Source: Escherichia phage vB_EcoM_JNE01
Direction: 5' to 3' (one strand)
Length of the DNA stretch: 64,000 nucleotides
Sequence record: OR670491
Positions within the stretch are counted from its first letter, which is position 1, and each line of letters begins with the position of its first letter. Below, piece by piece: positions 13,484 to 17,439 of the stretch. Both the position numbers and the translations under genes were made by a program. A model generated the notes under the pieces. That model searched no databases and had not been told where the DNA came from. It saw nothing but the letters and a program-made list of their open reading frames with translations.

Positions 13484-13729
13484 ATGAACAATTCAACAGA
13501 TCACTACCAAGAACTTAGTCAAAGTACTAAGAACTATATGAGCTACATGAACGCAGAAGATTTCGCAGTCTTCCTCGGAAAATTCTGTGCAATCAATACC
13601 CTCAAAAAAAGTACCAGTACTACAAGTGTACTTATGTTGAATTGCTTTATAGAGAACATCCTTGAGGAACTTCAAAGCCCTGACGAAAGTAAACGATTCA
13701 TGAACCTTTTGTTACTGGCCTCTATATGA
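13484..13729 (+). CDS. small hypothetical protein, first gene of EYY/LIYKY array (divergent member)
   Basis: ORF with AAGGAG RBS directly after promoter; C-terminal hydrophobic tail; stop overlaps next start. Confidence 0.5.
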   Translation: MNNSTDHYQELSQSTKNYMSYMNAEDFAVFLGKFCAINTLKKSTSTTSVLMLNCFIENILEELQSPDESKRFMNLLLLASI

Positions 13730-13935
13730 CTCAAGAACAAATTATGCAGTACTACCTATGTGCTATATCAAAAGAACATCTGAATAGCATAGGGCATCAA
13801 CAAATTATACTTGCAAATGCGAAACGTTCGGCACTTCTGCTTAACTCCATCAGAAATAACCTCATAAGGAATTTTCTGGAAGGTAACGAATCTATGCAGT
13901 ACTATTTCATCTTAACACTACTAATCGAGTACTAA
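13726..13935 (+). CDS. small protein, EYY/LIYKY family
   Basis: MTQEQIMQYY... ending YYFILTLLIEY; ATGA coupling. Confidence 0.55.
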   Translation: MTQEQIMQYYLCAISKEHLNSIGHQQIILANAKRSALLLNSIRNNLIRNFLEGNESMQYYFILTLLIEY

Positions 13936-14139
13936 ATGAATAAAGAACAATTATTTCAGTACTATAAAAGTACTCTGTCCAAAGGTCTACAGGAAAGTAT
14001 AGCAGTTGAGTCTGCAATACTACAGAACCTTAATGCAGTAGAATTCACAAACAGAATCACCAGGCACGCACAAAATGCTTTACAAGGACATGAAACCTTG
14101 AGATACTATCACATCATCGTGCTTTGTATGGAGGTATAA
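13936..14139 (+). CDS. small protein, EYY/LIYKY family
   Basis: MNKEQLFQYY... ending YYHIIVLCMEV. Confidence 0.55.
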   Translation: MNKEQLFQYYKSTLSKGLQESIAVESAILQNLNAVEFTNRITRHAQNALQGHETLRYYHIIVLCMEV

Positions 14140-14147
14140 CAGAACAA

Positions 14148-14339
14148 ATGAATCCAGAACATCTAGAGTACTACAAGACATTCATGAACCACAAGGATCA
14201 GTACAGTTACAATACTGCTATGGGGCATTTTCGATACCATACCAAAAAAATGCAAAAGCACACACTAACACTATGGACTGTACAAGCACAACGAGACGAA
14301 CTAAGATTGTGTGCTATAATTAAAATCCTGAACATCTAA
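14148..14339 (+). CDS. small protein, EYY/LIYKY family
   Basis: family-type start MNPEHLEYYK at internal ATG of track ORF 14124..14339. Confidence 0.5.
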   Translation: MNPEHLEYYKTFMNHKDQYSYNTAMGHFRYHTKKMQKHTLTLWTVQAQRDELRLCAIIKILNI

Positions 14340-14347
14340 GGAATACT

Positions 14348-14539
14348 ATGTACGAGCACAAAGAACAGTACTTAAACACTCTACCTAAAGATATACAAAG
14401 AGCATTCCCTTGTGCTCCGTGGGATTTAAACAGTAAATGGGGTTTTATTGAGTTCTATAACGATGTATGTATTGTACTGGAAAGTAAGTCCCTCTCAATG
14501 CAGTACTGTTCAATCTTGAACCTAATTTTTAAGTACTAA
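14348..14539 (+). CDS. small protein, EYY/LIYKY family
   Basis: MYEHKEQYLNTLP... ending QYCSILNLIFKY; AAGGA RBS. Confidence 0.6.
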   Translation: MYEHKEQYLNTLPKDIQRAFPCAPWDLNSKWGFIEFYNDVCIVLESKSLSMQYCSILNLIFKY

Positions 14540-14543
14540 AACT

Positions 14544-14723
14544 ATGCAAACATTCTATACAGATAGACTAAGCCTTAGAGATACTTTTATGTACGAAACC
14601 TTTGTTAAGTACTATAACTTAGGTACTCCAATTACAAAGAATATTAATCTACAGCACTGCACACACTCAGCAGTACATGACCACGATCCGTACAGATACA
14701 TCTTAGCCCTTTTAAGTATATAA
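14544..14723 (+). CDS. small protein, EYY/LIYKY family (59 aa, below ORF-track cutoff)
   Basis: hand-translated ORF MQTFYTDRL... ending YRYILALLSI; fills the gap in the array; coordinates approximate. Confidence 0.4.
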   Translation: MQTFYTDRLSLRDTFMYETFVKYYNLGTPITKNINLQHCTHSAVHDHDPYRYILALLSI

Positions 14724-14732
14724 GGAACACTA

Positions 14733-15407
14733 ATGAAACTCAATAATTACAGTAAACAATACCTAAAGCATTTTAAGTACCTCAAAAGCATTAAGGCTGA
14801 ATCTATCACCAGCAGCTACGTTTACAGCCCTAATGTACTAAAACAATTAAAGTACAAGAAAGAAAAAGTATCAAAGAACCTCAAAAAGTTTCTTAAGCAC
14901 AAAGACGCAAAGATTCAGTACTTGAACATTAAAAACGATCATCCAGTACTAAGCCTCAATACAAGTCTAAAGAATCTGGATAACTCTTCATTTATGCTTG
15001 AGTTCAATATAAATGAAAATACTCCAGCGGTTTTTACAATTGCGTATAATAAAGCACAAATCTTTTTAGGTGCAAAAACCGCACTTAAACTCAGTAAAGC
15101 ACAATTCTGTTTAGGTGACCAGTACTACGTAGGTAGTGTACATATTGAACTCGAAAAAGATATGTACTTCGGTAGTACCCACGATAATCCAGAACATAAA
15201 GATACTATTGACTTCTTCAGGAATCTCCCTAAAGAGTATTCAGAAGATGAAATGTTCCAGTGGAGTACTATTATTAAAGACCCACATCTTTGCTACGAAG
15301 TGTATAAGAAAGTACAAGGGATTAAACAAATGATTAAAGAAAATAAAAAAATGTACCAACTCTTGCAGTTCTTAACCGGAGAAAATCTAATTGTTCAAAG
15401 ACCATAA
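14733..15407 (+). CDS. hypothetical protein with FQxS-type motif embedded in the small-protein array
   Basis: 224-aa ORF; contains EDEMFQWSTIIKD, matching the motif of the 44-64 kb family. Confidence 0.5.
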   Translation: MKLNNYSKQYLKHFKYLKSIKAESITSSYVYSPNVLKQLKYKKEKVSKNLKKFLKHKDAKIQYLNIKNDHPVLSLNTSLKNLDNSSFMLEFNINENTPAVFTIAYNKAQIFLGAKTALKLSKAQFCLGDQYYVGSVHIELEKDMYFGSTHDNPEHKDTIDFFRNLPKEYSEDEMFQWSTIIKDPHLCYEVYKKVQGIKQMIKENKKMYQLLQFLTGENLIVQRP

Positions 15408-15585
15408 AGAGTACTACAGAAATCAACTCCCAAAGGAATGGCAAATAACATTAGAAACTAACCTAGCACAGATATATACCCAGAAGTTTCTTGCTATGAC
15501 ATGGGAGCACTGCATTGAGTCAGTACTGAATTCTTCAAATGAATCACAATATCTCAATACTCTTTTACTTGTATATAAATTCTAA
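15391..15585 (+). CDS. small protein, EYY/LIYKY family
   Basis: MFKDHKEYYRNQLP... ending YLNTLLLVYKF. Confidence 0.6.
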   Translation: MFKDHKEYYRNQLPKEWQITLETNLAQIYTQKFLAMTWEHCIESVLNSSNESQYLNTLLLVYKF

Positions 15586-15598
15586 AAAGGAATAACAA

Positions 15599-16003: not shown

Positions 16004-16183
16004 ATGCACAACGATTTCTATATACAAAAACTTATCGACGCTGGCCTGGAAAGCTTCCCGATAAATCCTGTACAAACAAAAGGATTGCACTGGTACTTCA
16101 TCCCCTGTACTAAAGCATGTATAAACCCCAGCAATTACAAGGATCTATACCACAATATATTAATACTCGCATTGAGGTACTAA
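16004..16183 (+). CDS. small protein, EYY/LIYKY family (59 aa, below ORF-track cutoff)
   Basis: hand-translated ORF MHNDFYIQKL... ending ILILALRY; coordinates approximate. Confidence 0.4.
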   Translation: MHNDFYIQKLIDAGLESFPINPVQTKGLHWYFIPCTKACINPSNYKDLYHNILILALRY

Positions 16184-16186
16184 ATT

Positions 16187-16369
16187 ATGCAAGAACACTT
16201 GGAGTACTACAGAAGCCATCTCCCAAAGAAGGCACAAAGAAACTTCGACCAACAATATATAAACCAAAAGAATCAGTTCTATAATGCATTCTATTCGTCT
16301 ATGAAAACTATTGCTATACAAGGCAAAGACCCGTACTATAGCATCCTGAACATCATCTTCAAGTACTAA
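16187..16369 (+). CDS. small protein, EYY/LIYKY family
   Basis: MQEHLEYYRSHLP... ending YYSILNIIFKY. Confidence 0.6.
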   Translation: MQEHLEYYRSHLPKKAQRNFDQQYINQKNQFYNAFYSSMKTIAIQGKDPYYSILNIIFKY

Positions 16370-16372
16370 AGC

Positions 16373-16558
16373 ATGTACAGAGACTTCTATATAAGTAAAC
16401 TTAATCCTGTACTACAAACTCGTATTCCTCCAGCGAAATTTATCCTCAAAACAAAAGCACAAAGGTATGAGTTCAAAAAGTGTACAAAAGAAATACTCAG
16501 TACTAAAAGTAATAAGAACATATACTATCAAGTACTCGTCCTTATATTCAAGTACTAA
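16373..16558 (+). CDS. small protein, EYY/LIYKY family
   Basis: ends YYQVLVLIFKY. Confidence 0.55.
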   Translation: MYRDFYISKLNPVLQTRIPPAKFILKTKAQRYEFKKCTKEILSTKSNKNIYYQVLVLIFKY

Positions 16559-16578
16559 AGTACTAAAGGAATAAACAT

Positions 16579-16773
16579 ATGCAACACCAGCACAAATTGT
16601 ACTACACGCAATTTCTTAATCAGCAACTACAACAATTTATACCTAATGAACCATTACCATATGATCATCCCCTGGGTGCACGCGTTTTCAAAAGAACTAT
16701 TAATGAACTATTGAGTACTACCGACGACGATTCCCTGTACTACTGCTTAATTAAACTTATATATAGGCACTAA
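16579..16773 (+). CDS. small protein, EYY/LIYKY family
   Basis: MQHQHKLYYTQFL... ending LYYCLIKLIYRH. Confidence 0.6.
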   Translation: MQHQHKLYYTQFLNQQLQQFIPNEPLPYDHPLGARVFKRTINELLSTTDDDSLYYCLIKLIYRH

Positions 16774-16774
16774 T

Positions 16775-16969
16775 ATGCAACTCCTGCACAGAGAATACTA
16801 CACACAATTCCTTAAAGAGAACTACAGAGATTCAGTCCCCGTAACTCCTTTTGACCCAAATAACCCAAGTTCAATCTTCCTCTTTAACGACGCAACACGT
16901 ACTGCACTCTGTACTACCAATAAACATTGGCACTACGCATTTGTACTTATACTTATATACAGACACTAA
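16775..16969 (+). CDS. small protein, EYY/LIYKY family
   Basis: MQLLHREYYTQFL... ending HYAFVLILIYRH. Confidence 0.6.
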   Translation: MQLLHREYYTQFLKENYRDSVPVTPFDPNNPSSIFLFNDATRTALCTTNKHWHYAFVLILIYRH

Positions 16970-16978
16970 GGCACTAAC

Positions 16979-17164
16979 ATGAATGAGCACAGAGAGTACT
17001 ACATAAAGAGACTTCACCCCGACCTACGAGATACTATACCATTCGTTCCACATAATATACATGAACCCGTAGTGCAGTACTACTTTAATATAACAGTACA
17101 AGCCGCATTAAGTGAATATAGACTTGAGTACTTCACTGTACTAAAACTTATATATAAGTACTAA
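16979..17164 (+). CDS. small protein, EYY/LIYKY family
   Basis: MNEHREYYIKRL... ending EYFTVLKLIYKY. Confidence 0.6.
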   Translation: MNEHREYYIKRLHPDLRDTIPFVPHNIHEPVVQYYFNITVQAALSEYRLEYFTVLKLIYKY

Positions 17165-17229
17165 CCCCTTGACATATACTCCAAGAATGATATACTACTT
17201 TCTATATAGAAACAATACAGAGATAACAT

Positions 17230-17439
17230 ATGCACGAACATAAAGATTTCTATGTAAGCCAACTCCCCGTAATAGACCAATTCTGGTTAGCTGATGCAGC
17301 ACCGTGTAATACAGATACTAAGTACGGACAATTGTGCTTTGTTGAATCTATAAAGAAAGTACTACAACAAGATAAAACTAAGTACCGTAAAGAAAAAGAC
17401 TTGTACTTTAATATAGTAGAACTTACCTTTATGTTCTAG
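17230..17439 (+). CDS. small protein, EYY/LIYKY family (last array member)
   Basis: MHEHKDFYVSQLP... ending LYFNIVELTFMF. Confidence 0.55.
   Translation: MHEHKDFYVSQLPVIDQFWLADAAPCNTDTKYGQLCFVESIKKVLQQDKTKYRKEKDLYFNIVELTFMF

Follow-up and report, generated by a model that had tools for sequence, protein, structure and literature searches.

A hypervariable tandem array of mini-protein genes at the right end of the unique genome of an Asteriusvirus-type jumbo coliphage

What does a run of very small, back-to-back open reading frames (ORFs) encode in the genome of Escherichia phage vB_EcoM_JNE01, and what might its products do for the phage? The locus in question spans positions 13484-17439 of a 64,000-nucleotide stretch of this genome (record OR670491; the window, below, means this whole stretch), where a reading made from the sequence alone had noticed about 16 tandem paralogues of a ~62-aa protein. 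The source is an Asteriusvirus-type E. coli jumbo phage (121Q/PBECO4 group), and its array region shares 96% DNA identity over the entire length with Escherichia phage Turkey5. From 18 kb on, the window corresponds to the beginning of the ~21-kb direct terminal repeat found in vB_Ec-M-J and fEgEco12 (described for fEgEco12 in PMC13070987), and the array is therefore located at the right end of the unique genome: the terminal repeat lies on one side, and ten RCC1-like paralogues (2114-13382, minus strand) on the other. We report that the array encodes a genus-restricted family of small proteins, that it is a sharply bounded hypervariable cassette, and that its products most likely would bind host targets, as judged from their evolutionary pattern and from analogy.

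The array is protein-coding, and not a DNA repeat. It consists of 17 consecutive plus-strand ORFs, and ATG-started ORFs of at least 55 aa make up 92% of its length; no ORF of this size is present on the opposite strand. In 200 dinucleotide-preserving shuffles of the array DNA, a mean of 0.69 such ORFs (maximum 3) was obtained, versus the 17 observed, and the mean ORF coverage was 3.5%. Compared to Turkey5, the proportions of synonymous and non-synonymous differences were 0.078 (pS) and 0.022 (pN), which corresponds to a non-synonymous to synonymous ratio (dN/dS) of 0.28, and the differences were distributed 39/20/64 over codon positions 1/2/3. For 132 orthologue pairs from seven other phages, dN/dS was 0.39, with values of 0.27-0.30 in the segments encoding the protein ends and 0.46-0.49 in the variable middles; on these ratios, purifying selection is clear at the end blocks. 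Synonymous codons vary at conserved residues as well: the invariant Tyr is encoded by TAC (72) or TAT (41), Leu98 by CTA (44), CTT (41) or CTC (13), with four or five codons in use at conserved Leu columns. It is therefore the protein that is under selection. At the DNA level, the units resemble each other only over stretches of 24-52 nt at gene starts and ends, with 62-82% identity. Tandem Repeats Finder detected no ~190-bp repeat in the array, and an Rfam covariance search gave no match at E values up to 0.1. The claim of tandem coding paralogues is thus upheld, and what is left of the ~190-bp DNA periodicity initially described is the set of short gene-end stretches. The array did not have the properties of a target of a diversity-generating retroelement either: its direct repeats, confined to gene ends, are at most 52 nt long and 62-82% identical, and no Pfam domain is present in its ORFs (no reverse transcriptase scan covered the wider genome).

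Membership was examined with a leave-one-out hidden Markov model (HMM), which recognised 15 members in the array, 59-69 aa long, with scores of 10.6-53.7 bits. An outlier at 1876-2085, assigned to the family by the sequence-only reading, is a member as well (25.3 bits, over its C-terminal two thirds). The earlier count of about 16 was slightly too high: the leader ORF (13484-13729) failed the family test, with a marginal 2.7 bits that leave its membership unsupported, and the array is interrupted by an unrelated 224-aa ORF. Both this ORF and a 217-aa ORF upstream had appeared by eye to share the C-terminus of the family, and were considered as N-terminally extended members; they were rejected on an hhalign probability of 0.14% and a leave-one-out score of 1.2 bits.

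Motifs were derived from alignments of the window members, and of 113 unique members from nine phages. In the latter, the N-terminal block reads M-x-x-H-K-E-[YF]-Y-x-x-x-L-[PS], with an invariant second Tyr, and the C-terminal block reads Y-Y-x-[IV]-L-x-L-I-[YF]-x-Y, immediately followed by the stop codon, which is TAA in 105 of the 113 aligned members. These are the two end motifs seen at first, but conservation is not restricted to them: the middle contains a further, weaker block, F-x-x-C-[TI]-x-x-[AV]-[LI].

The family, which had been thought to match none known, corresponds to PHROG 11711 (function not known). All six typical members tested matched this profile, with E values from 1.1e-9 to 1.6e-4, over positions 2-62 of its 62; the divergent member at 13726-13935 gave no match to it. 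The same family comprises gp250-gp265 of phage 121Q and their equivalents in PBECO4, JP4, A4, phAPEC6 and G17 (E values of 1e-9 to 1e-4 for most members), annotated in GenBank as hypothetical proteins in 121Q, JP4, A4 and others. Apart from PHROG, profile searches with the array ORFs gave nothing significant in Pfam, NCBIfam or the PDB sequence profiles, helix-turn-helix (HTH) domains included. An exhaustive HMMER search of 1.84 billion representative proteins returned 25 relatives of 59-69 aa, and all the named ones came from Asteriusvirus. The family is restricted to this genus, as judged from HMMER and cluster names, single-sequence tblastn being too insensitive for the purpose (2 records). 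The proteins were therefore already known, as a PHROG and as hypothetical proteins. As for the array itself, we found no description of it in the genome papers on Sharanji, CBB (PMC5259590), phAPEC6 (PMC7247149) and fEgEco12 (PMC13070987), nor by full-text literature search.

How stable is the array among related phages? It is found at the same place in 9 of the 9 Asteriusvirus genomes examined, with 13-22 family members in each, but its content differs strongly. At least 35 sequence records have matches to the array. Phages 121Q, PBECO4, JP4, A4, phAPEC6 and G17 have an array of the same layout at the same genomic position, but the array as a whole is of another 'allele' in the window and in Turkey5. 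Altogether, the 152 members of the nine phages fall into 54 clusters at 60% identity. Window and Turkey5 members never reach 60% identity with those of the seven other phages, and only four colinear pairs, at 54-59%, were recovered; the member at 13726-13935 is 54-58% identical to its positional orthologue in 121Q, JP4 and A4. The limits of the divergent region are sharp. Compared to Salmonella phage SD-15_S21, DNA is 90.7% identical up to position 13479, i.e. five bases before the first ATG, and 88% identical again from 17547, whereas inside the array only short patches of 71-82% identity remain. Moreover, the adjacent RCC1-like protein (12180-13382) is 96-97% identical in 17 phages that have the other array allele (tblastn). 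With such conserved flanks and neighbour around divergent members, the array is therefore a sharply bounded hypervariable cassette. Copy number changes were caught as well: Turkey5 has one unit more than the window, and the crossover lies inside a shared ~30-nt N-terminal coding segment, GAGCACAGAGAGTACTACATAAAGA. Gain or loss of a unit by homologous recombination through the conserved ends is thus directly documented.

We next consider how the array is organised and expressed. The successive spacers measure -4, 0, 8, 8, 4, 9, -17, 13, 3, 3, 3, 3, 20, 1, 9 and 65 nt. Genes of the main operon are therefore -17 to +20 nt apart, mostly 9 nt or less, and the range of 1-20 nt first proposed has to be widened to -17 to +65 nt. 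The member at 15391-15585 has no ATG, and TTG is its sole plausible start. About 7 of the 17 starts are preceded by a recognisable AAGGA/GGAG Shine-Dalgarno sequence, while the others lie -4 to +9 nt from the preceding stop codon. This bears out the suggestion that some genes lack a ribosome-binding site, and fits partial translational coupling along the operon. Only two strong promoters, at 13432 and 17169, serve the 17 genes. The first had been taken as the only one; it is indeed there, its -35 hexamer being invariant and its -10 element conserved in eight Asteriusvirus genomes, as is the first Shine-Dalgarno sequence of the array, but a second near-consensus sigma70-like promoter precedes the last member. 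No terminator-like hairpin was found on the plus strand inside the array. Near-consensus sigma70-type promoters number 36 in the window, most of them within the terminal repeat, and T4-type late promoters (TATAAATA) are absent from it. RpoD-like promoters are a mark of the short early gene regions of the related phage CBB (PMC5259590), and virion mass spectrometry of phAPEC6 (PMC7247149) listed the RCC1-like proteins gp549 and gp551, and none of the array members. Early expression of the array is thus suggested by the type of promoter and by the genomic neighbourhood, and the products of the array are probably not virion components.

A ~220-aa ORF is found in mid-array in all phages examined. 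In the window, an ORF of this size abuts or overlaps a family member twice, at 1221-2085 and at 14733-15585. The 217-aa and 224-aa ORFs of these two 'large + small' pairs align over their full length, albeit weakly (20% identity, pairwise E of 0.056), and belong to different PHROGs (34359 and 29152), so that homology between them is suggestive only.

What kind of protein is encoded? AlphaFold2 was applied to two members, and yielded confident, small helical models, with a predicted local distance difference test (pLDDT) score of 81 for 16187-16369, and of 86, with a predicted template modelling (pTM) score of 0.69, for 14348-14539. Both models have a C-terminal helical hairpin, and their N-terminal segment is predicted as a short helix. 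The family fold is therefore predicted to be a small soluble helical domain, whose core would be made up of the two ends together with the middle block, which would explain their conservation. Fold searches with the predicted models were uninformative, and returned no fold match. Isoelectric points range from 4.5 to 10 and net charges from -7 to +9.5 among the members, and a family-wide class of DNA mimics or DNA-binding proteins was rejected on these grounds.

Taken together, these results lead us to propose the following account, to which, as a whole, we give a probability of about one half. The array would be a polycistronic operon, transcribed early from a host-type (sigma70) promoter, translated in part by coupling, and encoding a genus-specific multigene family (PHROG 11711) of soluble helical mini-proteins of ~60 residues. 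The segments H-K-E-Y-Y-x-x-x-L, F-x-x-C-T/I-x-x-A-L and Y-Y-x-I-L-x-L-I-Y-x-Y would provide the aromatic and aliphatic core of a single small fold, while the loop, the surfaces of the helices and the net charge could vary freely; each paralogue would therefore display a different surface on the same scaffold. The family would evolve by birth and death, with homologous recombination at the conserved end-coding segments adding or removing whole units, and genomes that are near-identical elsewhere would exchange or replace the entire cassette. Such proteins would most likely serve as a repertoire of early, non-virion binders of host targets, acting in host take-over or in anti-defence, and variation among the E. 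coli and Salmonella hosts would drive their diversity. Of these elements, the coding nature of the array, the family membership and fold class of its products, the layout of the operon, the recombinational change in copy number, the hypervariability of the cassette and the restriction to one genus are shown by our results; the early timing is deduced from promoter type and neighbourhood, and the binding of host targets from the evolutionary pattern. An anti-defence or decoy role, one of the candidates initially put forward, is plausible, and is indirectly favoured by the cassette-like hypervariability. A bolder version, in which the phage would hold a germline repertoire of mini-binders (a ~60-residue scaffold duplicated 13-22 times, its surfaces diversified, its units recombined via the scaffold-coding ends and the block exchanged as a cassette, each member neutralising a different variant of a host defence or host factor), is a possibility that we regard as tentative, and rather unlikely in this full form.

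Several observations weigh against the proposed account. The first halves of the two AlphaFold2 models differ, with a long helix in one and a short helix followed by a loop in the other. The C-terminal helix is very hydrophobic (8 of 11 residues), which could mean that the protein oligomerises or faces lipid, instead of being a monomeric binder. The timing of expression is read from the promoter type. The dN/dS ratio is below 1 everywhere, and pervasive positive selection is therefore not demonstrated. Finally, the divergence of the alleles could reflect old lineages exchanged by recombination, and not fast evolution.

Four other explanations were weighed. The small proteins could be partners of the RCC1-like beta-propeller paralogues next to them, be it as assembly factors, as adaptors or as inhibitors, the two divergent arrays making up one system. 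The arrays do adjoin, with a divergent intergenic region of ~100 bp in common, both are multi-copy and mosaic among phages, and the arrangement is kept in all Asteriusvirus genomes examined. However, the alleles are unlinked: PBECO4, G17 and SD-15 have the other small-gene allele, but an adjacent RCC1-like gene that is 96-97% identical, and Turkey5, which shares the small-gene allele, has a less similar one (91.5%). Copy numbers are unequal (10 versus 16 here), RCC1-like proteins are found in phAPEC6 virions and array members are not, and sigma70-type promoters, which drive the array, are missing from the RCC1-like genes. We consider such a partnership unlikely. Alternatively, the array could be a selfishly expanding or near-neutral family of orphan ORFs, under weak constraint, copied via its repeated ends and devoid of any specific host target. 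A dN/dS of 0.39, which is high for phage genes, the free variation in copy number (13-22), the narrow genus distribution, and the presence of several other tandem paralogue families in the same genome region all go in this direction. Yet reading frames are intact, and the invariant Tyr and core motifs kept, in all nine genomes, the end blocks are under purifying selection (0.27-0.30), the promoter and first Shine-Dalgarno sequence are conserved, and no pseudogenised unit was seen in the window, so that we give this explanation little credit.

The sequence-only reading had also suggested small membrane-associated effectors, and superinfection exclusion, holin-like or in-plane anchored proteins acting through their hydrophobic C-terminus would fit this description. 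The conserved Y-Y-x-I-L-x-L-I-Y-x-Y segment is hydrophobic at ~8 of its 11 positions and flanked by Lys/Arg and Tyr. Still, no transmembrane-grade segment was detected in the 113 members from nine phages, as the highest Kyte-Doolittle mean over 19 residues was 1.25 (median 0.49), for a threshold of ~1.6. Their grand average of hydropathy (GRAVY) is negative, none of the members has a signal-peptide-like N-terminus, and the AlphaFold2 model with pTM 0.69 packs the C-terminal helix on the preceding helix, in a compact domain. These properties argue against an integral membrane protein, although the proteins may have an in-plane amphipathic anchor, and a membrane effector is, in our opinion, very improbable. 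Last, a non-coding DNA or RNA repeat with ORFs arising by chance, to which the word AGTACTA(A/C) shared by the junctions and the window-wide excess of GTAC words, promoters and hairpins included, might have pointed, is effectively refuted by the third-position bias and dN/dS of 0.28, the synonymous codons at conserved residues, the 17 ORFs versus 0.7 in shuffles with none on the opposite strand, and the empty Rfam and tandem-repeat searches, evidence which stops short of direct translation data. The account we favour, an early operon of diversified host-directed mini-proteins, is thus retained, and the features of the locus are collected in Table 1.

Table 1. Genes and signals in and around the mini-protein array (window coordinates)
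Feature	Coordinates	Strand	Evidence and remarks
217-aa ORF, PHROG 34359	1221..1874	+	Possible distant relative of the 224-aa ORF
Dispersed member, 69 aa as called (~52 aa from an internal Met)	1876..2085	+	Directly 3' of the 217-aa ORF; PHROG 11711 E 0.018
Sigma70-type promoter, TTGACA-17 nt-TACAAT	13432..13460	+	11/12 consensus positions; followed by a strong Shine-Dalgarno, AAGGAG
Leader ORF, 81 aa	13484..13729	+	Same position in all arrays; membership doubtful (leave-one-out 2.7 bits); dN/dS signal vs Turkey5
Member, 69 aa	13726..13935	+	Start overlaps the preceding stop (ATGA); leave-one-out 21.8 bits
Member, 67 aa, 0-nt spacer	13936..14139	+	Leave-one-out 27.5 bits
Divergent member, 63 aa	14148..14339	+	Leave-one-out 12.5 bits
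Member, 63 aa	14348..14539	+	PHROG 11711 E 1.8e-7; AlphaFold2 pLDDT 86, pTM 0.69
Member, 59 aa, divergent N-terminus	14544..14723	+	Leave-one-out 10.6 bits; positional orthologue elsewhere 54-58% identical
Embedded 224-aa ORF, non-family	14733..15407	+	PHROG 29152, function not known; orthologues 40-45% identical
Member, 64 aa	15391..15585	+	TTG start, 17-nt overlap with the 224-aa ORF; leave-one-out 40.8 bits; 100% identical in Turkey5
Member, 68 aa	15599..15805	+	PHROG 11711 E 3.2e-6; leave-one-out HMM
Member, 63 aa	15809..16000	+	Most diverged from Turkey5: 81% nt identity, 27 non-synonymous vs 9 synonymous differences
Member, 59 aa, 3-nt spacer	16004..16183	+	Coordinates and leave-one-out HMM
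Member, 60 aa	16187..16369	+	AlphaFold2 pLDDT 81; leave-one-out HMM
Member, 61 aa, pI 10	16373..16558	+	Leave-one-out 53.7 bits
Member, 64 aa	16579..16773	+	PHROG 11711 E 2.3e-8; leave-one-out HMM
Member, 64 aa, 1-nt spacer	16775..16969	+	Positional orthologue elsewhere 56-59% identical
Member, 61 aa	16979..17164	+	5' end carries the crossover removing (or, in Turkey5, adding) one unit
Second sigma70-type promoter, TTGACA-16 nt-TATACT	17169..17196	+	TG before the -10 element; precedes the last member
Last member, 69 aa	17230..17439	+	PHROG 11711 E 1.1e-9; leave-one-out HMM
Terminator-like hairpin followed by a T-run, weak	17761..17777	+	3' of the array

The surroundings of the array have features of their own. 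GTAC is over-represented 3.35-fold in the window, and still ranks first among tetramers when a Markov model is applied; the excess is ~14-fold for AGTACT and CAGTAC, and the 8-bp palindrome CAGTACTG occurs 61 times for 1.24 expected. GTAC words cluster at 17738-23062 and 28714-38698. Within the array ORFs, a G precedes the Tyr codon TAC in 41 of 73 cases and TAT in 4 of 33, and this preference points to selection on the DNA word. Many sigma70-type promoters between 18125 and 37670 (e.g. 18125, 22640, 29137, 30764, 35181, 35672, 37644) share the extended consensus (AAAAAGTAyTTGaCA)-N8-CAGTACTG-TATAAT-nGTTTACATC-AAGGGGAGA. The palindrome is located in the spacer and adjoins the -10 hexamer, so that it may be an operator or a promoter-specificity element; the spacer of the array promoter of 121Q-type phages also holds it.

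The ~2 kb 3' of the array (17440-19520) are essentially non-coding and 83-88% conserved in other phages, and correspond to an unannotated gap in 121Q. They are rich in repeats, with ~12 palindromes of the TTCAGTACTGAA type, an 8-bp periodic GGCTAAAC/GGCTGGAC run (18547-18673), a perfect 66-bp tandem duplication (19301-19432), and TGTTAAAATTCAGCCTG twice. Located where the ~21-kb terminal repeat starts, or close by, this segment is a candidate origin, terminus or regulatory region.

On the other side, the ten tandem RCC1-like (WD40_RLD) paralogues are ~360-450 aa long and separated by conserved intergenic repeats of ~50-100 bp. In phAPEC6, two homologues are virion proteins (PMC7247149). This array is mosaic too: beside the values given above for the 17 phages and for Turkey5, the gene at 12180-13382 is ~73% identical in others and ~30% in 121Q and A4, and Turkey5 has ~4 kb more of the array. 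Palindrome-built hairpins (GCCAGTACTGGAGTACTGGC) are present in the intergenic regions 4610-4650 and 11025-11065, followed by a T-run on the minus strand, and so look like terminators made of the over-represented word. Further plus-strand paralogue families, tandem or dispersed, occupy 39288-42941, 48583-56718, 44891-46004 and 60650-62316; they include a family of ~75-100 aa with six to eight members (39.3-42.9 kb) and two interleaved families of ~120-160 aa (48.6-56.7 kb).

Does the array resemble any known system? In the hyperplastic regions of T4-type phages, modular shuffling is mediated by promoter-early stem-loop (PeSL) elements (Arbiol et al. 2010, PMC2839356; Comeau et al. 2014, PMC4122927). 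As in these regions, we observe a block of small, presumably early ORFs, of function not known, that vary between near-identical genomes, and whose gain and loss result from recombination at short conserved sequences on either side of each ORF. In the array, however, it is the coding ends of the paralogues that recombine, and not intergenic promoter-terminator cassettes: the array does not have an early promoter and a stem-loop terminator for each ORF, but two promoters for 17 genes of one family, with almost no intergenic DNA.

Large eukaryotic DNA viruses possess terminal multigene families that behave as 'genomic accordions', as in the amplification of poxvirus K3L, or in the MGF110, MGF360 and MGF505 families of African swine fever virus (ASFV). 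These share with the array the tandem paralogues near a genome end, beside terminal repeats, and the shifts in copy number by recombination, as well as a fast divergence, which in the array too may be tied to host interaction; the array differs in belonging to a bacteriophage, in the far smaller size of its units (60 aa), and in its link to host immunity, which is putative. Anti-CRISPR and anti-defence loci of phages usually gather unrelated proteins, often together with an HTH regulator (Aca). The array has their 'small, clustered, variable' character, and its genes are likewise promoter-proximal, lineage-restricted, devoid of detectable homologues and variable between close relatives, but it comprises at least 15 paralogues, all of a single fold, and searches of its ORFs revealed neither an HTH nor a Pfam domain. 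The host-take-over module of Bacillus phage SPO1 consists of 24 small early genes in the terminal redundancy. Small genes, early in SPO1 and presumably so in the array, are densely packed behind strong promoters of the host type in both, at or beside a terminal repeat, whereas the SPO1 genes are not mutual paralogues, and the array is located immediately outside the repeat.

It is unusual for a bacteriophage to carry 15-22 paralogues of one mini-protein in tandem. The present array is the most sharply hypervariable block of an otherwise conserved neighbourhood, a pattern that often marks loci of host conflict. As the array is easily deleted or swapped as a unit, the hypothesis is directly testable. 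If its members are host-directed inhibitors, they would amount to dozens of new small inhibitors of defence or housekeeping proteins of E. coli and Salmonella, because 54 sequence clusters are present in nine genomes, and this would help to explain differences in host range among therapeutic jumbo coliphages. Recombination via scaffold-coding ends would then be a simple mechanism by which a phage repertoire is both kept and reshuffled. Should the repertoire reading be true, the array would be a phage counterpart of the terminal multigene families of poxviruses and ASFV, and a natural library of small inhibitors.

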